From the IMG/VR virus record IMGVR_UViG_3300027887_000007, positions 46,208 to 110,207 of that record: a stretch of DNA of 64,000 nucleotides, one strand, 5' to 3'. The notes under the pieces were generated by a model that was not told where the DNA came from, made no database searches, and saw only the letters and a list, made by a program, of their open reading frames with translations. Positions within the stretch are counted from its first letter, which is position 1. Every line of letters starts with the position of its first letter. Positions 8,644-46,279 of this stretch are shown here, one piece after another. This DNA comes from a virus. The translations under genes were made by a program, and so were the position numbers.

Positions 8644-9249
8644 CTAGCTCCTAAGCCCGGAGAAGTAGTCTTCAGACGTAAGCTGGGAGACTACCCCGGC
8701 ACATACCTTGCCCTCGTACGTGGTGTAGCGAGGGATCCGGCAGATTTCCTTGAGGCCAAGCCTCTTTACGAAGAGCAAAGCCGCACGGTTAGGCTCCGGC
8801 GTAAGCCCAACCAGCGTGTGCAACCCCAGAAGGTTGAACCAGTAGTCGAACAGGATTTCGTGGCACGGATCGGTGTAGGCCGGCTTCTGGTAGTTCTTGA
8901 AGAACAGGAACGATCCGATCGCCTTGTTGAGCGTCCCGCCGCAGCAGTTCTGTGTCTCTGACAGCCACGCCATTCCAACGACGTCAACTACGCTGTCCGT
9001 CTGCTCGTCCATCAGCGCAAAAACGCTGAGGAAGGTTCTGGGGCTGGACATGAAGTTCATGAACTGCAGGAGAGTCATCTCCGGGTTCTCGTGAAACACG
9101 ATCTCCTGCAGACCGTCTTGGTGAATTCTGAAGTACAGATCGACTAGGCCCTGCTGCGATGTCGACCCGTCATCTACCCTGTACGGGACCAACGTGAAGT
9201 GGCCCCGTCTGAACTGAAAATCCATCTTCTCGGCAACGGCTCCTTGCAT
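8644..9249 (-). CDS. GNAT-fold (acetyltransferase-like) virion assembly protein
   Basis: LHTLVGLTPEPNRAALLFVKRLGLKE resembles GNAT motif B; usual position between tail tube and ejection genes; RBS GGAGGGGAG before ATG 9249. Confidence 0.65.
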   Translation of the reverse strand: MQGAVAEKMDFQFRRGHFTLVPYRVDDGSTSQQGLVDLYFRIHQDGLQEIVFHENPEMTLLQFMNFMSSPRTFLSVFALMDEQTDSVVDVVGMAWLSETQNCCGGTLNKAIGSFLFFKNYQKPAYTDPCHEILFDYWFNLLGLHTLVGLTPEPNRAALLFVKRLGLKEICRIPRYTTYEGKVCAGVVSQLTSEDYFSGLRS

Positions 9250-9294
9250 ATCTCCCCTCCGGCAAAATCCCGTCACTACCGTAACATATTGAAG

Positions 9295-13583: not shown

Positions 13584-14225
13584 TTACGCTCCCGGGAAGT
13601 CCGTTACCGGAGTGCCGTAGATCAGGCGCTTCGCCAGCTGCACCCCGACGATATACCTCGCATGGGCGTACGCGGCTCTGGCGAGGTCTTGGTTGTCTCC
13701 GTCCCTTGCCAGCGCCAATGCTATCACCTCCCATCGGATGTACGGTTCCCAAGGGTCGGCCACAGCGATCAGTTCGTTGAGGTCGTGGCTATGCTCGTCT
13801 GGGATCAGATCGTAGAAGACTCTGTAGGTGCCTCCTGCTGCCGGGATCTTGTCGAATTCCCATTGCACGATCGGCAGATGGTCCTCGTGGTAGTACCGCG
13901 GGTGACCGACTGTGTTGCTCCTCCAGTCGGGATCCTCTCGCTCGAGATCCCATGACGTTACCCGACGGAGACGCTTGCGGTCGAACGAAAGCCTCTCGAT
14001 ATCACCCATTTGCGCCGTCTTCGTGACCAGAGGGGAACTTCCACCCGGGAGTACAACCGTATCATCCTCTTTGATGATGCCGGTCTGCCGCAAGAAATCC
14101 CGTTCGGCATGGGTGACGTACTCGATCATCTCCTGCTGTGTCCAGACTCCGGCCCCGAAGTTCTCGTCCTCCTCTTGGAGATCGAGAGCAACCCGCTGCA
14201 GCAATTCCCTGACCGTGGTCGCCAT
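13584..14225 (-). CDS. Head-to-tail adaptor/ring protein
   Basis: TVRELLQRVALDLQE...WTQQEMIEYVTHAERDF helical adaptor signature. Confidence 0.7.
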   Translation of the reverse strand: MATTVRELLQRVALDLQEEDENFGAGVWTQQEMIEYVTHAERDFLRQTGIIKEDDTVVLPGGSSPLVTKTAQMGDIERLSFDRKRLRRVTSWDLEREDPDWRSNTVGHPRYYHEDHLPIVQWEFDKIPAAGGTYRVFYDLIPDEHSHDLNELIAVADPWEPYIRWEVIALALARDGDNQDLARAAYAHARYIVGVQLAKRLIYGTPVTDFPGA

Positions 14226-14906
14226 TTACTGTTTCGTCCCCTCTTGCGCCCCGCGCCTCAGGGTAGACTCCGAGGTTACGGCCTCCCTGACATCCCACGA
14301 TGGGAAGCTCCTCAGCACGTTGCGGCCGGAGAGCTGCTGGACAACTTCAATGAACCGGATGTAGAAGGAACCGCCTTGCTGAAACTCCGCACCGCCCTCT
14401 TTGAACATCGCCCGAGATACGATGTAGTCCTCCAAGGCCCTTTCGTACTCAGGCCGGCACGGGAGGGGAAGCCCATCGTCATACACGCGATCGTACTCTG
14501 CCAGACCCTCGACGTAGACAGTCCCGGCCAGTAGCGGGCGCGGGTAGATCAGAATCTTGTTCAAGCCCAACGATGACCAACTGCGGATGTCCCTCCTCAC
14601 CTCGTTCGCAGCTTCCCAGTCGGCTTCGTTGTCCATTGCGTCGACCGGCTGGCGGTGCAGGTAGTGGCTTCCGTGGCGGGCTGATACCGGGGAGATGATT
14701 CCTTCCGGAAGATCGTAGACGTTCTCTGCGTTGGTTACGTCAACCTCGAAAGTATCCTGACTGTCGAAGGCGATCAGGTTGAGTTCGTTCAGGGCGTCGT
14801 TGAGGAATACGACAAGCTCGTCCCTCGTCCATCGGACCGGGGCTTCTGGTAGAAGTTCGTTAAGGCGCCGGAGCGCCTGGTCGATCAGCTCTCTCGATGT
14901 CGCCAT
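14226..14906 (-). CDS. Head-to-tail adaptor/ring protein (paralog)
   Basis: SRELIDQALRRLNE...RWTRDELVVFLNDALNEL, YDLPEG, ALEDYIVSRAMFKE. Confidence 0.7.
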   Translation of the reverse strand: MATSRELIDQALRRLNELLPEAPVRWTRDELVVFLNDALNELNLIAFDSQDTFEVDVTNAENVYDLPEGIISPVSARHGSHYLHRQPVDAMDNEADWEAANEVRRDIRSWSSLGLNKILIYPRPLLAGTVYVEGLAEYDRVYDDGLPLPCRPEYERALEDYIVSRAMFKEGGAEFQQGGSFYIRFIEVVQQLSGRNVLRSFPSWDVREAVTSESTLRRGAQEGTKQ

Positions 14907-14912
14907 GATCCA

Positions 14913-15272
14913 CTAGCTCGTCCTCAGCGTGACGTCCGGGTAAACGACTAGGTATCCAGACGCGAGCGTGTAAATGCTTCCCTGTGAGGTGACCATCTGG
15001 CAATCCCATAGAAGCTGGTGCTTCCCGTTCGTCAGACTGGAGGTATCCGTGGGGGATATCGTCACTGTGAAACGCCCGTTGACCGCAGACGTCACCGATA
15101 TTCCGCTGCCGATCGACTTCTGGAACACCGCGGAGCCGTCTTCGTCGGTGTAGTTCCACTTGGCGGTGAAGTAGATGGCTGCCCCCGTGATGTCGTAGAC
15201 CGCCCCGTTGGCGACGACCGAAGCCAGAAGGCTGACCGTGTCTCCGCGATACATCGTAAACGTATTGGACAT
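14913..15272 (-). CDS. BppU-like Ig-fold virion protein
   Basis: MYRGDT...YDITGAAIYFTAK...GRFTVTISPTDT...WDCQM...TLASG pattern. Confidence 0.65.
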   Translation of the reverse strand: MSNTFTMYRGDTVSLLASVVANGAVYDITGAAIYFTAKWNYTDEDGSAVFQKSIGSGISVTSAVNGRFTVTISPTDTSSLTNGKHQLLWDCQMVTSQGSIYTLASGYLVVYPDVTLRTS

Positions 15273-15276
15273 TTCT

Positions 15277-15759
15277 TCACCTTAGCTGAAATCTGATCGT
15301 AGCGGTTGGCGGCGACTCCTTCGTGAATGTGGCTGTCGGCACACCGAATCCCGTGTCAAACGGAACGCATACGGCATCTCCCCCTCCGGGCTCACCGGGC
15401 TCCGGAGGCTCTTCCCCGGTCGGCTGGACCGTCGCGGAGGTTTCGGGGACCACCCTTACCTGAAAGACGCTCGTCACTACCAGTGTCGTCGGCGGCTCTG
15501 TGGTACCCCAGATGATGACCCCCGCCGTCTGCGAGACGAGCATCAGCGGGTTGTCGCCCTGCACCGCAGCTACTCCGGCCTGTGAGATAAATTTAGTCGG
15601 GTCGTCGCCGTGGATTACTGACGCGCCCAATACCGTATTCCTGACGACTGGGTCATCTCCCTGAATGAGGGAGAGACCGTCCGTCGTGAATCTTGCTACG
15701 GCATTGCCGCCGGAGAGGAAGATCGCGCCGGCTTTGAGGATCCGATTTATCTCGGCCAT
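15277..15759 (-). CDS. Linker protein with repeated beta-strand units
   Basis: Repeats LSLIQGDDP / ASVIHGDDP / AAVQGDNP and ISQAG / VSQTA. Confidence 0.65.
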   Translation of the reverse strand: MAEINRILKAGAIFLSGGNAVARFTTDGLSLIQGDDPVVRNTVLGASVIHGDDPTKFISQAGVAAVQGDNPLMLVSQTAGVIIWGTTEPPTTLVVTSVFQVRVVPETSATVQPTGEEPPEPGEPGGGDAVCVPFDTGFGVPTATFTKESPPTATIRFQLR

Positions 15760-15761
15760 AG

Positions 15762-16874
15762 TCAGCTTGCCAACTGGTACCCAAGCTCAACATCGTTGGC
15801 TTGAGCAACCGTAAAGGGCGATCCCGTTACTGGATCGACGTATAGGAACGACTGGCGCCACAAGAATTCGACGTCGTAAGCGCTCTCGTTGTCGCCATAG
15901 GAGTCCGTTGCAGACCTACGGGCGACAACCTTCAATCCGTGCGGGAGAGAATCCAGCTTTTTCCCCTCAACGCTGATGCCAAGGGCCCTGACGCTGGTCA
16001 AAGCATTCGTGATCACGGCCCCGCCATAGGTGAACGTATCCTTGTTGCCTACGGTATCTGCCGAGTTGTATGAGTTGCTTCCTCCGGTCGACCAGTCAAC
16101 CGGGCTCTCGTTGACCATCGCGTAATTGTCCGTACCCTCGAACGGCGTAAAATCGGAGTAGAATCCGTCCGCCACCGGAGCGACCTCGAGGACCTTGAGG
16201 TCCCCTATGAAGCTCTTCATGTAGGTTCCGGTGGCATCCATGATCACGACGTCGTCAAGAAGGTGGTAGTCGACCGCAGTCGGCCAGCCCATCGAAATCG
16301 GCCCGGTGAAGGTCCCGCCGAACCTAATCTCGTCGATGATCGCACTGGTCCCGGGAACGGCTGAAATGAAGTTTCCCGTTCCAGACCAGTGTATTACTCC
16401 GTCTATCCGACACTCCAACCAACCGGTGCCGGATCCTCCAACCGTGAAGTCGACTTCGACCCAATGCCAAGTCTGCTCTGAAAACTCGTGTGTGCCGTGA
16501 CCGACTAGAACATTGCCGCCGTCGTAGATAAGGATGTTCTTGTTGACAACGTGGACTCCGGCGTGACGGTTGTTGTAGTTCCAGAAGTCGACGAGCGCCA
16601 TCTCTCCGGTGCCGTCGGTTTTGATCCACCGTCCGCATCCGACGATAACCCTCGGTAATCCTCCGAATCCGGCGAGTTCAAGACACCCGCTGCCTGTCAT
16701 CTTCAGGCAGCTTCCGATGCCATGCCGAGCGTAGTCTGCCCCTTCGACACTGAAGTTGCCGGAGGAAACCCAGTAGTAGCCGTTATAGAAGCGAGCGTAC
16801 AGACCCCACGAGGCGGTGGCACCAAGATCGTTATCGTCAGTCAACTCAAAGCCGACAGCCCGAACGACAGCCAT
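15762..16874 (-). CDS. Beta-sandwich (LamG/ConA-like) virion appendage protein, paralog 1 of 4
   Basis: GFE start, WHWVEV, DDVVIMDATG, APVADG, TDNYAMVNE, LYVDPVTGSPFT, shared with 16883, 20216 and 21199. Confidence 0.7.
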   Translation of the reverse strand: MAVVRAVGFELTDDNDLGATASWGLYARFYNGYYWVSSGNFSVEGADYARHGIGSCLKMTGSGCLELAGFGGLPRVIVGCGRWIKTDGTGEMALVDFWNYNNRHAGVHVVNKNILIYDGGNVLVGHGTHEFSEQTWHWVEVDFTVGGSGTGWLECRIDGVIHWSGTGNFISAVPGTSAIIDEIRFGGTFTGPISMGWPTAVDYHLLDDVVIMDATGTYMKSFIGDLKVLEVAPVADGFYSDFTPFEGTDNYAMVNESPVDWSTGGSNSYNSADTVGNKDTFTYGGAVITNALTSVRALGISVEGKKLDSLPHGLKVVARRSATDSYGDNESAYDVEFLWRQSFLYVDPVTGSPFTVAQANDVELGYQLAS

Positions 16875-16882
16875 GGTTCCCC

Positions 16883-17968
16883 CTACGAGTTGATCTTGTA
16901 GCCGAACTCCGCGGCATTCACCGCTGAGCGGGTAAACGGATATCCCGTATTCGGATCAACGTAGATGAGAGATTCGAGCCAGTTATAGGAGCTCGGCACT
17001 GGAACGACTGACCCGACTCCGTCGACTCCGGAAGACCGGCAGATGCCGACGAAGGTGTGACCACCACCGTCGATACAGCGAGCGTAGGCGGTGCAGCCAA
17101 CCGCCGCGATCGTGGTGTTCGGGTTGGTGAGCGGGGTTCCGAATGTGAAGGTATCCTTGTCTCCGACGGTCTGCGAAGAGTTGTAGGTTGTGTCGTCGTC
17201 CGGAGGGACCTCATTGACCATCTCGAAATGGTCGGTCCCAGAGAGCGGGGTGAACTGCGTGTAGTATCCGTCCGCGGTTGGGGAGAACTCACTGACCTTC
17301 CGGTCGCCGATGAAGTCGTTACAGTAAGTTCCCGTCGTGTCCATCACGATCAGGTCATCCCACTGTTGCAGCGTGACGCCTACGGGATTGGCGTCGGATA
17401 GGGCGCCATTCCTCTGACCGCCGATCGCCCATCCGTCCGCGCCCGCCGTCGTCGACGTGATCGTGTTGATACCGGTCAGCGAAAGAATAACCTGCTCGTC
17501 GACTCGCATGACGATTGAGCCGGTCGTTCCATGGAAAACGACCTTGATCTCAATCCAATGCCAAGTCGACTGGCTGACCTCGGTACTCGCCGTTCCCAGC
17601 AGGGTCCCGTTGCCACGGTAGGCTTTCACTGTACGGTTCAGAACCCGGATGTAGCACTGGATCGTCGTGCCGTCGAAGAACTCCGCAATGTTGACGTCGG
17701 TTACCGTGTTGTCGGTCAGGTAGTAGCCGAAAGACAGAATCATCGTCCCAAGGCTTGCGCCAATCCCGTCGCGGATCTCGCACCCACCGCCCGTGTCCAA
17801 AAGACACTTTCCCAGAGCATTCCTCGGGTTGACGTCCGATACGGTGACCATCGACGGAGCTAGGCTGATGGCCCCGAAGCCGTTCCTACGGCAGACCGTG
17901 AAAAGTTTGCTGTTCTTCGCAGCGGTACTGTCCATCAACTCAAAGCCACAATACTTTCGGATAGCCAT
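16883..17968 (-). CDS. Beta-sandwich virion appendage protein, paralog 2 of 4
   Basis: WHWIEIK, DDLIVMDTTGTYC, PPDDDTTYN, YVDPNTGYPFT...NAAEFGYK. Confidence 0.7.
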   Translation of the reverse strand: MAIRKYCGFELMDSTAAKNSKLFTVCRRNGFGAISLAPSMVTVSDVNPRNALGKCLLDTGGGCEIRDGIGASLGTMILSFGYYLTDNTVTDVNIAEFFDGTTIQCYIRVLNRTVKAYRGNGTLLGTASTEVSQSTWHWIEIKVVFHGTTGSIVMRVDEQVILSLTGINTITSTTAGADGWAIGGQRNGALSDANPVGVTLQQWDDLIVMDTTGTYCNDFIGDRKVSEFSPTADGYYTQFTPLSGTDHFEMVNEVPPDDDTTYNSSQTVGDKDTFTFGTPLTNPNTTIAAVGCTAYARCIDGGGHTFVGICRSSGVDGVGSVVPVPSSYNWLESLIYVDPNTGYPFTRSAVNAAEFGYKINS

Positions 17969-17979
17969 CGTTCACTCCC

Positions 17980-18354
17980 CTACCTGATGAACTGAATCTT
18001 CAAAACGAAGCTGATAACCTGCCCGAGGGCGACTGCGTGACCCGGAGAAATGGTCTCGTGGAGAATCAGATTTCCACCGACTAGCGCGTCATAGAGTCCC
18101 CATTCCGTGATGGTTTTGGCCGCATTTGCCGCCAAACTGCCGGAGACTTGGTAGGTGTCACCGGTAACCGAGATCGTGGTGATCTGGCTAACTCCGGCCA
18201 CTCGCGCCTCTGAGGCCTCGGTAAAAAGGGCTAGGTCGTTGGCGCCGGCGGTCCCCGCCCCGGTTCCCCACGCGATGTAAAGCGGCTCGGTGCCGTTCCC
18301 CTTGACTCGGGCAGCGACGATCGCAAGTCCGACGTTGGTAACGATCTTGGCCAT
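17980..18354 (-). CDS. Virion structural protein (fibre-anchor/collar-like)
   Basis: IVTNVGL...YIAWGTG...LFTE...ITEWGLYDA pattern common in phage fibre N-termini. Confidence 0.6.
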   Translation of the reverse strand: MAKIVTNVGLAIVAARVKGNGTEPLYIAWGTGAGTAGANDLALFTEASEARVAGVSQITTISVTGDTYQVSGSLAANAAKTITEWGLYDALVGGNLILHETISPGHAVALGQVISFVLKIQFIR

Positions 18355-18357
18355 AAC

Positions 18358-18657
18358 CTACCTCTCCAGTACGTTGCTCCAGCGAACCTTGAAGTGCATC
18401 TCGCCTGCCGCCTTGCCGTTCCCGGTAGACCAGAACCGGTAGTAGTAGTCCCCCGACAGTTCCACGTCCCTTGAGATTTCGTAGACCCCGACTCCGGTCT
18501 TTTGAACCTCAGGATCGGTTCCATAGACCTTGGTCACCTTCGACCGGTTCGGCAGCCTCATCTCAAATGATACGGTATCCGGGTCAACTGGCTCCCCGTC
18601 CGCATCGACGAAAGTCGCGGAGCAGACGATCCTGTCACCGATGTCGTACGTGTTCAT
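18358..18657 (-). CDS. Small Ig-like virion protein
   Basis: YDIGD...ATFVDADGEPVDP...GVGVY...GDYYYRF. Confidence 0.6.
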   Translation of the reverse strand: MNTYDIGDRIVCSATFVDADGEPVDPDTVSFEMRLPNRSKVTKVYGTDPEVQKTGVGVYEISRDVELSGDYYYRFWSTGNGKAAGEMHFKVRWSNVLER

Positions 18658-19181
18658 GGCATCTTCCTATCCGACAGGCGGGCGTCAACCGCCGTATCTC
18701 TAACTAGGGCCTCCCCGCTTCTAATGCTCACCTGCGCCCTCCACGTTCGCGCAACCTCGCTCGCAGCCCTGTAAACGAGGGTCTCGAGCTCGTAGTCGCC
18801 CAGCTTAGCATCCCACTCCGGGTGATCCCTCAGGATCAAGGTTGCGATCTTCTTAATAACCTCTATGAAGAATCGCTGGAGCGTCTCGATGTCGAACTCG
18901 AGAGCGACTTGAAAGTCGGCCATCGCCCTCGGCGAGAACTCAACCTCGATCGGAAACGCGATCGTAGGATTGGTTATCATCGTTGCCGAGATAGACTCAT
19001 CAACAATCAGGGCAAAGGCGATCTCCCGGGAAGCGTCAAGTGTTACTGATACCGCGTCCTCTGCCTCGAGGCCTAGGGCGACATCCACATTGAAGATCAG
19101 CTGCCCGGGCCAGTAGTTGGTCTCCCAGTAATCGAGATCCCAGAACCCTGACGCGAAGTATCCAACTCCACCTTCAGACAC
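18654..19181 (-). CDS. Hypothetical virion protein with aromatic N-terminus (YF/FW/YW repeats)
   Basis: GYFASGFWDLDYWETNYWP followed by beta-strand-rich sequence. Confidence 0.6.
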   Translation of the reverse strand: MSEGGVGYFASGFWDLDYWETNYWPGQLIFNVDVALGLEAEDAVSVTLDASREIAFALIVDESISATMITNPTIAFPIEVEFSPRAMADFQVALEFDIETLQRFFIEVIKKIATLILRDHPEWDAKLGDYELETLVYRAASEVARTWRAQVSIRSGEALVRDTAVDARLSDRKMP

Positions 19182-19189
19182 TCTAACTC

Positions 19190-19825
19190 CTACGGTGTCA
19201 GCGTCATCGAGGTACGGTTATTGTTGGCATCCGTCACCACCACAGCCCTTGTAGCAACCCCGTTCGGCGTCTTGAACGTCTTTCCGGCATTCGCCGTGAC
19301 GCCAGATAGTACCGACAGCAGAATCGAAAGGATCTGGTCGTAAGTGTAGTTCCCCTGTGATTCTGCAATTCGAGCGCCAAGCGCCGCCGCGATCGTACTT
19401 TCCGTCACCACCTGAAGGTCGAATGCCGTAAGCTGGATTTCCTTCATATTCGGCCCGATGTTCAGTGCCGTGGTCGTGGCCTCGTAAATGTTGATCTGGA
19501 CCTTTGCGGAGGCGTCGGCAGCTCCGAAGATCGTTGCCGAATCGTGGAACTGGATCTCGTACATCCCCGGGAAGTTGGTCGCGTCAACCGCCTTGAACCT
19601 GCAGTACGTCGAGCCCGTGGGCGCCTGGTAGGTCCCGGGAGTCGTGATGTCCTCGATGTTGGCCCCCGTGTAGGTCACGGTTGCCCCCTGCTCCCTCCGG
19701 TAGGCAATCACGAGGTTCGTACTGGCGTTGGTCAGGCCGGTCTTTCCCGCACCTGTCGTACTCGAGTTGTCGGGGATGAAAACCCGAACCATCTGAGATG
19801 TGGCTCCGCGGGTTCTGATGTCCAC
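19190..19825 (-). CDS. Virion structural protein
   Basis: 211 aa Thr/Gly-rich; DATNFPGMYE; C-terminal TDANNNRTSMTL. Confidence 0.6.
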   Translation of the reverse strand: MDIRTRGATSQMVRVFIPDNSSTTGAGKTGLTNASTNLVIAYRREQGATVTYTGANIEDITTPGTYQAPTGSTYCRFKAVDATNFPGMYEIQFHDSATIFGAADASAKVQINIYEATTTALNIGPNMKEIQLTAFDLQVVTESTIAAALGARIAESQGNYTYDQILSILLSVLSGVTANAGKTFKTPNGVATRAVVVTDANNNRTSMTLTP

Positions 19826-20197
19826 CTAAAAGCCCCCTCTCATGGCGCTGAATCCACCGTAGAAGTCCGGGTTGATCAGTAATCCACCGGTTTCCTTGAC
19901 GATGACCTCAAGTACAAACTGCGACACTCTTGGACCCGCGTCTGAGTAGAACACCGTCTCAGTGGCGAACTGTGAGACTCTCGGCGGGTCATCGCTTCCA
20001 TAGATCGTTTCTACCGCTAACTGGCTGACCTTGTTGACCGAATTTTCTAGGACCGAGTACAGCAGAGCCTTTGTGATGTCTATGCCGGCAGGCGGCTCTA
20101 TGACTGACTCTAGTACTCCCTTCGCTACGCCAAGCCCGGTTGTCGGCTCGAGGACCGAGTAAAGTACAGATTTACTGACCTCTACACCTTCAGCCAT
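19826..20197 (-). CDS. Linker protein with 3+3 repeated beta-strand units
   Basis: VSKSVLYSVLEP / VAKGVLESVIEP / ITKALLYSVLEN, then VSQLAVETIY / VSQFATETVF / VSQFVLEVIV. Confidence 0.7.
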   Translation of the reverse strand: MAEGVEVSKSVLYSVLEPTTGLGVAKGVLESVIEPPAGIDITKALLYSVLENSVNKVSQLAVETIYGSDDPPRVSQFATETVFYSDAGPRVSQFVLEVIVKETGGLLINPDFYGGFSAMRGGF

Positions 20198-20215
20198 CTA
20201 ACATCCCCTCGGACT

Positions 20216-21199
20216 CTACGTGGCAGACCTGAAATTGATCTGGGCAGCGTCCAGAAGAGTCGGGGTTATCGCCGCCGCGTTCCACTGCGTCATGTAGCGT
20301 TCGTAGGTTTGCCATCCAGAGGCAAGGGCTTGCCCCGCGTCGACGTCAACCGTCCCGCCGGACTTTACCCCAAGCTTCAGTGTGCCGACTGTTGCCGAAG
20401 ACGTCTTCAATGCTCTGGCGGCAATCTTCGTAGCTATCACGTTCACCGAAGAAGACGGCAGGTTCGACAGCCCAAACTGGGCATCCTGAGCGTCTGAGTC
20501 GACGACGATCAGATCGGCATCGCTGATCGTCGTTTCGTCGATATCCGTGTACGCTCCGGTCCAAGCATTCGCATCCCCGGCGCCGTTGGGGTAGTGCGTT
20601 ACCAGTGACATAGCCCGCGTGTCAGTGGTAGCCACGATCATCTCGGAGAAGTACTCCGTTCCCGAACCGGACAGGTGGGTGTAGATGACTACGATGTCGA
20701 AATCGGATACACCCGAGATCGACGAGTCTCCGGTGAAGGTGAGGGCCAAGACGCCATCGACGTAGACCCTTATTGTGGAAGAGCCCCCGTAGCTCGACAG
20801 CTGCATGTCGATCTTCTGAAGCGTGTTGTTGATAAGCACCGTACTCGCCGATGCCGCAAGCTCAGTTCTCGTGGATCCGTCCCATGTTGCGACACTGACC
20901 TTTCCACCGGAGCTTGTTGCGGGACCAAGGAATATCCCTTTGTCCGTTCCCAGCTTGCCGATCCCTATCTTCATCCGGCCGGCGTTGGCTGTGTCTATCT
21001 TCCACCAGACAGACAGCCAGCAGGACGTTACACCACCGCCAGAGAAGGTCGTCGACTTGTAGTAAACGTAGGGGGAGGCTGTAAACCTCACCGAGCATCT
21101 GCCGTACCCGGAACGGAATGTCGTCGAACCGGTCTCCACCGGAATTGTGCTAGCGTTTGGAAAGTCGATGTCCTCTCCACCGCACCATAGGATCGACAT
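20216..21199 (-). CDS. Beta-sandwich virion appendage protein, divergent paralog 3 of 4
   Basis: MSILWCGGED, IRVYVDG, YFSEMIVATTDTR, PNGAG..NAWTG, LDAAQINFRS. Confidence 0.65.
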   Translation of the reverse strand: MSILWCGGEDIDFPNASTIPVETGSTTFRSGYGRCSVRFTASPYVYYKSTTFSGGGVTSCWLSVWWKIDTANAGRMKIGIGKLGTDKGIFLGPATSSGGKVSVATWDGSTRTELAASASTVLINNTLQKIDMQLSSYGGSSTIRVYVDGVLALTFTGDSSISGVSDFDIVVIYTHLSGSGTEYFSEMIVATTDTRAMSLVTHYPNGAGDANAWTGAYTDIDETTISDADLIVVDSDAQDAQFGLSNLPSSSVNVIATKIAARALKTSSATVGTLKLGVKSGGTVDVDAGQALASGWQTYERYMTQWNAAAITPTLLDAAQINFRSAT

Positions 21200-22251
21200 T
21201 ACGTTTCCCTCTTGTAGCCGAACTCGGCAGCATTAAAGCCGGCCTTGGTGAATGGATATCCCGTAGTCGGATCCACATAGACTGGACTCTGCAGCCAGTT
21301 GTAACTCCCGGCGACTGCCTTTTCCGGGCCCAAGCCGTCGGTTGTGCCGGTTCGAGCAACCCCCTTCACGGAAGCGCCGCCCTCAACCTTGGTGTAGATG
21401 CTGCAAACCACTGCAGAAATCGCAGACGCCGCGGCTAGTTGTGTGACGGAGAAGGTGTCAATCTCTCCGACTGTTTCCGTGTAGTTGTAGGTTGTGTCGT
21501 CGTCTGGGGGGACTTCGTCTACGTTGGCGTAGTTGTCTGATCCGGCACTGCGATCCCATTGCTTGTAGGATCCGTCGGCAGTAGGAACGCACACTTGAAC
21601 GATGCGTGGGCCGAGGAGGGCATTGCAGTACGAACCGGTGGTGTCCATGATGATGATGTCGGACCATCTGGCCGTATTGGCGTCCCAGTCCCCTTCCGTT
21701 CCGGTCCCGTATCCGAATCTGATTTTGTTGCAGTAGGCGTTTGCGGTGTACTGGGTGTCCTGACCGGTGAGATTCAGAACCGTTTGATTGTCGACCTTTA
21801 CCAGAACTGCTCCGACCGAGTTGTCGATCGTTACGTCCACCTCTATCTGGTGCCAAGCGTTTGCCGGCACCGACGCGCCAGACTCTTCACCGATTTTTGT
21901 TCCGACCCCACTGCTGGCACGGTAGGCAGATATCTTCCCATTAGCACAACCTATGGATAGCTGGGCGCCGTACCGCGCATCTCCGTCCGAGAAGGTGACA
22001 AGGGCCGGGATCCCGGGGCCCCACCACTGCGAAGCGTAGAATCCGAATTGAACCAGAATCCGCTGGTAGTTTGCCGGGAGAGCTTTCACGAAGTACTGCC
22101 CGCCGCATTGCGGGTGAATCAAGTACCTCGCGTTTGCGGTCCTGCCCGATCCCGTGCCGATCGAAGGACTGTAGCCCACACCAAACGAGTCGTACCGTTT
22201 GGTGATCAGCGAGATGTCGTATGGGAATCCGTCGACGAACAGGAGGGCCAT
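21199..22251 (-). CDS. Beta-sandwich virion appendage protein, paralog 4 of 4
   Basis: MALLFVDGF, WHQIEVDV, SDIIIMDTTGSYC, PPDDDTTYN, YVDPTTGYPFT...NAAEFGYK. Confidence 0.7.
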   Translation of the reverse strand: MALLFVDGFPYDISLITKRYDSFGVGYSPSIGTGSGRTANARYLIHPQCGGQYFVKALPANYQRILVQFGFYASQWWGPGIPALVTFSDGDARYGAQLSIGCANGKISAYRASSGVGTKIGEESGASVPANAWHQIEVDVTIDNSVGAVLVKVDNQTVLNLTGQDTQYTANAYCNKIRFGYGTGTEGDWDANTARWSDIIIMDTTGSYCNALLGPRIVQVCVPTADGSYKQWDRSAGSDNYANVDEVPPDDDTTYNYTETVGEIDTFSVTQLAAASAISAVVCSIYTKVEGGASVKGVARTGTTDGLGPEKAVAGSYNWLQSPVYVDPTTGYPFTKAGFNAAEFGYKRET

Positions 22252-22254
22252 GGC

Positions 22255-22905
22255 TTAGACGCTCGTCATCGTAATCGTTACCATCACGTTGACCGTGTCA
22301 CCGGATCCAACAATCTTCACCCCACCGGTAAAGTCGCCTTCACCGAGCAGGGTTCCGGTGCTGTCTGCCTTGACTGGATTGTCTACGAGACCGCCGCCGC
22401 GGACGGTCATGTCGGCATTGATGTTGAAAACCGCCTTGGACCCGGAGTTGCTGACGGCCCCGCCAGAGATGGTTCCCGGCGTGAATGCCGGCCGGGTCGC
22501 GTTGCTGTAGGGTTGACCCTCCACCCATCCGCCGTGGGTTGCGAAGGTGTCGGCTGCGCTATAGCCGGTAGTGAACCCCGCGTTGTTGACGAGGAAGACG
22601 TACCAGGCCGGAACCGCAAGCCCGGTCTTCAAGGTGGCATCGAGGTAGGCGTTCAACCCCACGGTCGGGACAAGATTCTCGATCTTGTCGTACCAGATCC
22701 GCTCGCTGCGATGCGGCAGCGGACATTGATCATGAGGGGTGGTGCAGCGGGCCCCATCTTCGTGATAGTGCCGGAAGCACTCGAAGTCGTAAGTCTGCGA
22801 GACTCGGATGTTCTGTCCAGCTCTCATCCGGCCGAGTTCCTTTGCGACAGCCTCGCGGACCTTCGACAGGGACACCCTAATGGTTCCGTGTACGGCTTCG
22901 TCCAT
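22255..22905 (-). CDS. Virion structural protein
   Basis: NLVPTVGLNAYLD...WYVFLV...YSNATRP...GDTVNV pattern of phage structural proteins. Confidence 0.6.
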   Translation of the reverse strand: MDEAVHGTIRVSLSKVREAVAKELGRMRAGQNIRVSQTYDFECFRHYHEDGARCTTPHDQCPLPHRSERIWYDKIENLVPTVGLNAYLDATLKTGLAVPAWYVFLVNNAGFTTGYSAADTFATHGGWVEGQPYSNATRPAFTPGTISGGAVSNSGSKAVFNINADMTVRGGGLVDNPVKADSTGTLLGEGDFTGGVKIVGSGDTVNVMVTITMTSV

Positions 22906-22920
22906 GACACCCCCCAAACG

Positions 22921-23478: not shown

Positions 23479-24120
23479 TTACTGTTTCTCTGTCAACACC
23501 CGGTTGAAGTCCTTAGACCCCACCGGTTTTGGCACACCCATCTGGTTGACCTCAAACGATGTATCGCAGTGGATCTTGATCCCGGCTGCCGTGGCAGACT
23601 GGCAGAAGTTGAGGTCGGCAGTGAACTTCTCTTCCTTGTCGTACCAGAACCAAGGCTCCCTCATCTGCCAGAGTATCTCGGTCCGGATCATGATCACACC
23701 GGTCCCTACCCCGTCGCACTCAACGAGTGCGTTTTTGGGGTAGTCCAATATCGGATTCATGCTGCCGTCCGGGGCCCTTTTGAAGAGCAGGGGGGCATGG
23801 TCGCCACCGGACCTGAAGAACAGCGGTGCGACGATGTCCACGTTCCGCTCGAGCAGACGGTCGAACACATCGGCCGTTGGAAGCATGTCATCGTCGATCA
23901 TGGCGACGTGACTGAGACCGTTGTTCTTGGCGATACTGCAGGCTATGTTTCTGGCCTTGGTGATCTTCATCTTGGGGCCGGCAACCATCCACCTGACGAG
24001 GAATCGCCCTTCGGCTTCCGCCCGTCCGCAGGCTCCAGCAAGAACCAGAAAGTGAGAGAATGGTGTTGGTTGGACTCCCCAGTAGGAGGGGACTAGGGCA
24101 AGGATTTTCGCATCTGGCAT
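23479..24120 (-). CDS. GT-A fold (GT2-like) glycosyltransferase
   Basis: ARN...SHVAMIDDDM (DxD), VECDGVGTGVIMIR, PWF, ADLNFC. Confidence 0.75.
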   Translation of the reverse strand: MPDAKILALVPSYWGVQPTPFSHFLVLAGACGRAEAEGRFLVRWMVAGPKMKITKARNIACSIAKNNGLSHVAMIDDDMLPTADVFDRLLERNVDIVAPLFFRSGGDHAPLLFKRAPDGSMNPILDYPKNALVECDGVGTGVIMIRTEILWQMREPWFWYDKEEKFTADLNFCQSATAAGIKIHCDTSFEVNQMGVPKPVGSKDFNRVLTEKQ

Positions 24121-46145: not shown

Positions 46146-46279
46146 TACACGCCCCCACCATCAATCGGGTCGATTCCGCCGTAGACGGAGGTTGGAGTAC
46201 CGCCGTCGACGTCTCCAAAGTTCTCAGACGTCCCCTCGCCGCCGCCGCCACCGATGATGATGCAGCTCTCTATCTCCAT
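46145..46279 (-). CDS. Small DGG-motif protein (44 aa, not in the ORF track)
   Basis: MEIESCIIIGGGGGEGTSENFGDVDGGTPTSVYGGIDPIDGGGV*; TAATG overlap with the fibre gene. Confidence 0.6.
   Translation of the reverse strand: MEIESCIIIGGGGGEGTSENFGDVDGGTPTSVYGGIDPIDGGGV

Follow-up and report, generated by a model that had tools for sequence, protein, structure and literature searches.

Lectin-like heads and strand-bearing strings in two cassettes of a podophage-like genome: a possible strand code for fibre assembly

The region described here lies in a 64,000-nucleotide stretch of viral DNA (positions 46,208 to 110,207 of IMG/VR record IMGVR_UViG_3300027887_000007), hereafter the window, which is the right-hand 64 kb of a complete virus record of 110,207 bp. 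Within it two gene cassettes each encode a pair of head proteins (A and B in cassette 1, C and D in cassette 2) followed by a small protein of repeated strands (L1 and L2, respectively). We think it fairly probable that L1, and probably L2, are the strings, or ropes, of a virion fibre, with 17-residue units that dock lectin-like heads by beta-strand addition. The observations behind this are a pairing of genes, a specificity of strand type, a scaling of copy number, a block structure of the strands and the predicted disorder of L1 when alone. A wider proposal is put forward more tentatively, as one that may well not hold: that this is a case of a widespread, so far undescribed “strand code”, in which short linear motifs on a string or baseplate protein set the identity, site and copy number of the head paralogs that dock, so that a receptor repertoire could be changed by adding a head gene together with a matching strand block. 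Such a code would be present in cultured phages, for example phiCbK, and would be independent of the gp80 ropes of phages such as GP4. The cassettes had been singled out in an original prediction, which read each linker as donating a missing strand to the heads in the manner of chaperone-usher pili; its observation was confirmed and its interpretation partly supported.

Heads and strings of the two cassettes

The genome is podophage-like and all genes of the window lie on the minus strand. The six open reading frames (ORFs) that had been described, two runs of head, head and linker, are present at the stated coordinates; they and their parts are as follows.

21199 to 22251, minus strand: head A, 350 amino acids (aa); phrog_2448 match over the full length, E 1e-28
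20216 to 21199, minus strand: head B, 327 aa; phrog_6368 match, E 8e-21, and a weak Laminin_G_3 match
19826 to 20197, minus strand: L1, 123 aa, an ORF with two strand types
20042 to 20185, minus strand: type a block of L1, three 14-residue strands VEVSKSVLYSVLEP, LGVAKGVLESVIEP and IDITKALLYSVLEN, scoring 21-35 bits with a position-specific scoring matrix (PSSM)
19892 to 20035, minus strand: type b block of L1, three strands NKVSQLAVETIYGS, PRVSQFATETVFYS and PRVSQFVLEVIVKE, PSSM scores 23-27 bits
19826 to 19891, minus strand: C-terminal tail of L1, GGLLINPDFYGGFSAMRGGF, with the stop codon; its tail motif is common to another string (P0129)
16883 to 17968, minus strand: head C, 361 aa; phrog_2448 match, E 3e-35
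15762 to 16874, minus strand: head D, 370 aa; phrog_2448 match, E 4e-13
15454 to 15759, minus strand: repeat region of L2 (160 aa), with six units of 17 residues that belong to a third type; G-D-D/N-P ends three of the six
15277 to 15453, minus strand: C-terminal part of L2, read from the sequence as a proline- and acid-rich spacer PTGEEPPEPGEPGGGD, then 45 C-terminal residues and the stop codon

L1 does consist of three copies each of two strands, as claimed: type a (VSKxxxYxVL) at residues 5-18, 22-35 and 39-52, and type b (RVSQxxxExx) at residues 55-68, 72-85 and 89-102, with a period of 17 residues throughout that is far above shuffled controls. The repeats of L2 also exceed shuffled controls (lag-17 self-similarity 0.89, null maximum 0.12), although there are six units and not the five that had been counted, and just three carry the GDDP-like turn. 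The strands of L2 score negatively on the type a and type b matrices alike. Relatives of L2 were not found in IMG/VR or PHROGs, nor were any found for its spacer and C-terminal part (15277-15453), and a scan with head D returned distant matches only.

Searches for L1 relatives by PDB sequence comparison gave no match, and both a word-indexed homolog search and tblastn against cultured phages were empty; residues 54-99 gave a weak match to phrog_13560, the family of phiCbK gp316 (E 0.033). An exhaustive, profile-free search of representatives, however, recovered 32 relatives, which rules out L1 as an orphan and indicates that the type a and type b motifs are widespread. These relatives take three forms: free proteins (about 65 aa) in which three type a strands are combined with a hydrophobic tail, fusions in which the strands lie C-terminal to diverse beta-sandwich domains, and very large proteins with up to 20 copies. 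Stretches similar to L1 number 20 in a 6,221-aa protein (P0107) and 14 in a 1,952-aa protein (P0110). In one fused protein (P0111) blocks of type a and type b strands are interleaved and shuffled.

Strand types follow head families

The association between strands and heads was analysed across IMG/VR loci with homologs of head B (18, of which 17 were usable) or head A (33), together with phiCbK and TvV-S20, and all ORFs of the fetched loci were scored with position matrices for both strand types. The gene next to the head-B homolog carries type a strands and lacks type b in 16 of the 17 loci, usually after a gap of about 10 nucleotides or less, and in the seventeenth a type a string lies 1.6 kb downstream of the head. 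In loci of the head-A family (A/C/D type) the adjacent gene has type b strands and lacks type a in 28. The exceptions among the fetched loci are a set of near-identical contigs whose head has 400 aa, in which a string was not detected, and a locus that is truncated. Among non-duplicate loci with a single head family, 16 are a-only, 25 are b-only and none is mixed (Fisher p = 1e-11, for loci that are related). In one locus (L021) both families are represented by one head, and the protein after them has three type a and four to five type b strands, the same layout as cassette 1. This gene comparison suggests that type a strands partner the head B family and type b strands the head A/C/D family.

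The number of strands also rises with the number of tandem heads (Spearman rho 0.76, p = 4e-9, loci related), averaging 3.1 with one head, 7.0 with two, 9.0 with three and 10 with four. In multi-head loci similar strands stand in contiguous blocks, about one per paralog (e.g., 3+3, 5+5, 4+4), and the adjacency of the blocks is significant by permutation (P < 0.05) in 9 of 13 such loci. Block sizes range from 2 to 5 or more with a mode of 3. The pairing extends to a finer level, as one clade in the C-domain tree of the heads occurs in exactly the five loci whose string has a block of aromatic strands, a sub-type with an aromatic residue two positions past the conserved glutamate. Adjacency, dose, blocks and sub-family pairing are all as expected if each strand is a docking site for a particular head. 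As for the claim that one chain displays two different heads in three copies each, the comparison bears out two strand types that go with two head families and about three strands per head gene, whilst the binding itself is something that we infer from it.

Structure of the heads and of a read-through product

Heads A, C and D are clear paralogs (32-40% identity; A vs C 40%, A vs D 32%). Head B shares just 16% identity with head A and is tied to the others through cross-matches between phrog_6368 and phrog_2448. The C-halves are more conserved than the variable N-halves, as had been noted (majority fraction 0.51 vs 0.38, rising to 0.60 in the last 26 residues). The heads do stop 3-4 residues past the motifs NAAEFGYK, NDVELGYQ and DAAQINFR, but these are the natural ends of the family, since the phrog_2448 profile alignment ends at position 333 of 335 and nearly all of 106 database head homologs are 330-365 aa long.

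An AlphaFold2 model of head C alone (94 sequences) has two well-predicted domains, with a predicted local distance difference test (pLDDT) score of 89 and a predicted template modelling (pTM) score of 0.90. The N-domain is a concanavalin A (ConA)-like jelly-roll beta sandwich, superposable on known members of the ConA-like lectins and glucanases, and these variable domains are likely to bind glycans or receptors. The C-domain (residues 222-361 in head C) is phage-specific and without a Pfam family, and is found alone or in other contexts too; it was tried as a relative of gp80 and rejected (hhalign probability 0.15%). A PDB sequence search with head A was without match and a scan of viral contigs with head C gave nothing. 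Full-length structural relatives of the heads occur in many cultured phages, all of them uncharacterised, and that of Achromobacter phage AchV4 is named “virion structural protein”.

These results do not favour the idea of a missing strand, as head C is predicted to fold by itself, the ends of the heads are those of the family, and the strands sit on a separate scaffold. A single-chain phage domain in which an RVSQ strand follows the FGxK strand, as described in the original prediction, was not found, and the strand motif (at least 10 bits) is present in 0 of the 106 head homologs. The search for longer, fused head-strand forms likewise found none, though this is weak evidence. One natural protein (P0127) joins three type a strands to a truncated head B only, and of 16 other loci 8 have their head-B homolog in frame with the string.

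In the window itself, head B and L1 share a reading frame (19829-21199, minus strand) with two TAG codons, five codons apart, between them. The read-through product (P0139), with a 6-residue linker, was folded with AlphaFold2 on an alignment of 38 rows, eight of which were natural in-frame head-string pairs from other loci. Residues 1-327 of head B were modelled at a pLDDT of about 90 and the first type a strand (L1 residues 5-18) as a 14-residue beta strand at about 80; past residue 18 the chain, type b strands included, is coil with a pLDDT of 33-41. The ESM Atlas model of L1 alone (pTM 0.23) is also predicted to be disordered. These predictions argue against L1 as an autonomous beta-solenoid. 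They are compatible with a single strand for each head monomer and with non-cognate type b strands that remain unbound.

There is the possibility that the strings instead self-assemble, for example into a trimeric beta shaft of which the strand blocks are structural modules, and that the heads dock on the shaft or on the tail. Many phage fibres are obligate trimers that look disordered in monomer predictions, so the low pLDDT of L1 is compatible with such a shaft; the modal block size is 3, and the docking of the strand in the model may be an artefact of the cis fusion. We nevertheless regard this as unlikely. Blocks that vary from 2 to 5 or more fit poorly with a fixed fold module, blocks of the two types are interleaved and shuffled in fused proteins such as P0111, and the strands, as read from sequence, comprise a single long beta segment with proline-rich linkers that corresponds to no known beta-spiral or beta-helix repeat. 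The tracking of head sub-clade by strand sub-type argues moreover for direct recognition.

Cultured carriers and anchoring of the strings

In the cultured phage phiCbK (NC_019405.1, L056 5445-6744), gp316 and gp315 form a two-gene module of string and head, lying where the tail module ends, with gp317, a tail protein, on one side and the endolysin on the other. The string, gp316, has 69 aa, three type b strands and the hydrophobic tail RPRRLIFMLGA, and it shares strong phrog_13560 profile matches with the strings of two other loci (L025 and L029); gp315 (362 aa) is a phrog_2448 head homolog. Both are annotated as hypothetical, and no published function for them was found in the literature searched. 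A second carrier is “Tetraselmis viridis virus” S20 (TvV-S20; NC_020840.1, L001 7330-8829), where a head gene is followed by a 499-aa “tail assembly protein” that has a LamG domain, a baseplate-hub attachment domain (PF09931) and PF09356, and between the LamG domain and PF09931 four type b-like strands whose period is 17 residues. Here the strands are directly N-terminal to PF09931 and hence part of the hub protein itself, whilst other strings carry He_PIG immunoglobulin (Ig) domains or conserved hydrophobic tails. From the hub protein and the He_PIG-bearing strings we conclude that strands are attached to virion-anchoring parts.

By the same token, the C-terminal tail of L1 is a candidate virion anchor, and the C-terminal part of L2 is a candidate for the same function. 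A few kinds of tail recur among the strings (L006-L018; P0118-P0137). Two of them are [R/Q]-P followed by five to six hydrophobic residues, the last being G or T (RPVVQVCG, QPIMFVIT), and D-F-[M/W]-P-x-L-x-R-F; a third, of the L1 type and common to P0129, is LLNPD..GGF..RGGF. These tail types may be separate anchoring signals.

Strings could alternatively be non-structural assembly factors, for example staples or chaperones which hold or trimerise the heads and which the mature virion would lack. Short, unfused strings with three strands and about 65 aa are indeed common, and the phiCbK records of gp315 and gp316 lack the “virion-associated” note that their neighbours carry. We consider this very improbable, given that many strings are fused to the PF09931 baseplate hub, to He_PIG Ig domains or to tail proteins of 500-1500 aa, that the AchV4 relative of the heads is named as structural, and that the ropes whose structures have been solved are components of the virion (PMC13730344).

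Genome setting and the gp80-like proteins

Both cassettes have capsid-proximal genes on one side and, on the other, a tandem pair of SU10-type tail adaptor genes, which places them at the neck/tail junction; the genes beyond the adaptors encode a protein of 1,252 aa and an ejection protein of giant size. In order of transcription, cassette 1 encodes a 220-aa protein, head A, head B, L1 and proteins of 211, 175 and 99 aa, and cassette 2 a 124-aa protein, head C, head D, L2 and a 119-aa Ig-like protein. The features other than heads and strings are as follows.

22255 to 22917, minus strand: 220-aa protein that opens cassette 1; phrog_8123 match
19190 to 19825, minus strand: 211-aa protein directly after L1; Pfam and PHROG searches without match
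18654 to 19181, minus strand: 175-aa protein; Pfam and PHROG searches without match
18358 to 18657, minus strand: 99-aa small protein; weak matches only (YtkA-like, phrog_18294)
17980 to 18354, minus strand: 124-aa homolog of the GP4 fiber I protein gp80 that opens cassette 2; PF23140, 28.3 bits against a cut-off of 27
14913 to 15272, minus strand: 119-aa Ig-like protein after L2; phrog_1084, E 2e-16, and BppU_N, E 6e-4, under the cut-off
13584 to 14906, minus strand: two tandem SU10-type tail adaptor genes; PF24175, E 2e-15 and 2e-10

The 119-aa protein is a candidate collar or attachment domain, and the 99-aa protein is possibly Ig-like and a candidate collar or anchor. The gene order of this region resembles that of the Ralstonia podophage GP4, which is mirrored by the SU10-type adaptor paralogs (13584-14906, minus strand) together with an acyl-CoA N-acyltransferase-like gene (8644-9276, minus strand); GP4 likewise encodes a giant DarB-like ejection protein. 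A glycosyltransferase-like gene (23479-24120, minus strand), with a phrog_12406 match and weak Anp1/TAGT Pfam matches, is located among structural genes, two genes upstream of cassette 1.

The 124-aa protein, besides its Pfam assignment, has a weak match to PDB chain 8jou_a and 52% identity to a “tail collar fiber protein” of MW202796.1, a related uncultured phage. The 220-aa protein is possibly related, at a distance, to GP4 gp80; the link is weak and indirect, by way of a 164-aa homolog (in L009) that matches PF23140 (Gp80) under the curated cut-off (E 6e-4); as a direct gp80 paralog it was rejected, BLAST similarity to the 124-aa protein being absent. In GP4 the rope is probably gp79, to judge from its repeats and gene position; gp79 matches phrog_19041 (E 2e-26) and its sequence was not found in the PDB. 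PF23148 (Gp77) is matched by GP4 gp77 and by a 105-aa protein of MW202796.1, and is unmatched by the 119-aa and 99-aa proteins of the window even at E values up to 10. MW202796.1 (L002 9001-10971) has, in this order, a gp80-like gene, a 429-aa protein with about twenty 18-residue repeats (xxKAVSKxxxYLSTSxS) and the Gp77-type collar of PF23148, a trio that is likely to be a GP4-style rope module although annotated merely as hypothetical.

The presence of these genes raises the question of whether the gp80-like proteins (17980-18354 and perhaps 22255-22917) have L1, L2 or both as their GP4-type ropes, with the heads attached elsewhere on the virion. The first gene of each cassette is gp80-like and the last a small Ig-like one, as in the order gp80, gp79, gp77 of GP4 and in the trio of MW202796.1, and L2 fits neither strand motif, so that its partner may be another. 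In about 50 other loci, however, strings accompany heads, and a gp80-like gene lies within 5-6 kb in L009 only. All six strands of L1 are of the two types that track heads, and neither L1 nor L2 shows similarity to gp79 (phrog_19041). We consider it improbable that the strings of the window serve gp80-like proteins in this way, and the reading is a live option for L2 only; the partners of L2 are proposed from gene position, and the gp80-like protein could be among them.

Proposed mechanism and its implications

Under the docking model that we prefer, each 17-residue unit would pair with the conserved C-domain of one head by beta-strand addition, such that one string chain would carry several heads. 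The sequence of the strand would specify the head, type a for the head B family, type b for the head A/C/D family and strand sub-types for head sub-clades. The ConA-like N-domains would then bind a glycan or receptor. Attachment to the phage tail would be through the C-terminal tail of the string or, in other phages, through an Ig-like or a baseplate-hub domain.

Several points weigh against this model. L2 matches neither type a nor type b even though heads C and D belong to the family paired with type b in other loci, and the gp80-like proteins of the same cassettes are left without a role. As the heads are predicted to fold completely alone, a docking strand is not needed for their fold. The case for head-strand binding is drawn from gene comparison and a single fusion model, in which the ordered type a strand could be a trivial hairpin with the last strand of the head, produced by the artificial cis fusion. 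Strands per head range from 2 to 7, three being the mode only, and the p-values given above overstate independence because the loci are phylogenetically related. The missing “virion-associated” note of the phiCbK pair counts on the same side.

If the model is correct, the rope-and-bead principle known from a few structures obtained by cryo-electron microscopy would apply to phage proteins that are far more numerous and as yet unannotated. The head homologs found number in the hundreds, and PHROGs 2448, 6368 and 13560 are all now listed as of “unknown function”. A readable rule for which receptor-binding module belongs on which site would improve the annotation of phage receptor-binding proteins and the prediction of host range, and would account for why lectin-like genes stand in tandem in the tail modules of phages.

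Comparison with known systems

In chaperone-usher pili the subunits are without a G strand of their own, and each provides an N-terminal extension for the next one. Our model has in common with these a strand given in trans to a beta-sandwich subunit, to form a non-covalent polymer of adhesin-bearing subunits; it differs in that the strands are on a separate scaffold, that none of the 106 head homologs carries one, that the heads are predicted with confidence to fold by themselves, and that the pilin fold was not found. The baseplate protein BppU of lactococcal phages holds receptor-binding trimers via a folded trimeric C-domain and not by tandem linear strands, and sequence relation to these baseplates (TP901-1/Tuc2009 BppU-BppL, or evolved Dit with carbohydrate-binding module insertions) is absent. 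The bead-chain neck fibre of A-1(L) was ruled out as an analogue, being built of head-to-tail trimers without a rope (PMC10966104). The phiCbK pair gp316/gp315 has the same module, a string of three type b strands ending in a hydrophobic tail and adjoining a head homolog, but only one head and one block; its string gene is ahead of the head, and the module ends a siphophage tail module, before the lysis genes.

A better analogue than pili is the rope-and-bead, chain-like fibre of GP4, A1002 and Bas63, whose solved structures show bead dimers bound to a rope through beta-sheet augmentation (PMC13730344, PMC12609058). GP4 fiber I (PDB 8JOU) has five gp80 dimers on a separately encoded rope, interlocked with an Ig-like gp77 collar; A1002 has eleven gp40/gp41 dimers on the nozzle-rope gp39, held by beta-sheet augmentation, and Bas63/Sf14 has a similar collar-whisker complex (PMC13730344, PMC12609058). 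Common to all of these and to the window, here on the basis of genes and predictions, is an extended chain with many short strand segments and multiple globular subunits. With A1002 the window would also share two different bead proteins on one rope, and with GP4 it shares the neck/tail location, the gene order, a gp80 homolog and small Ig-like proteins after each string. Against this, the beads are two-domain, lectin-like proteins of about 350 aa (phrog_2448/6368) with no detectable relation to gp80, L1, L2 and the type a and b motifs are unrelated to gp79, and a PF23148 collar was not detected in the window. The head/string module is thus not a member of the gp80 rope family and yet would work like the GP4-type ropes, with the further difference from GP4, A1002 and Bas63 that here the type of strand appears to encode the family of head.

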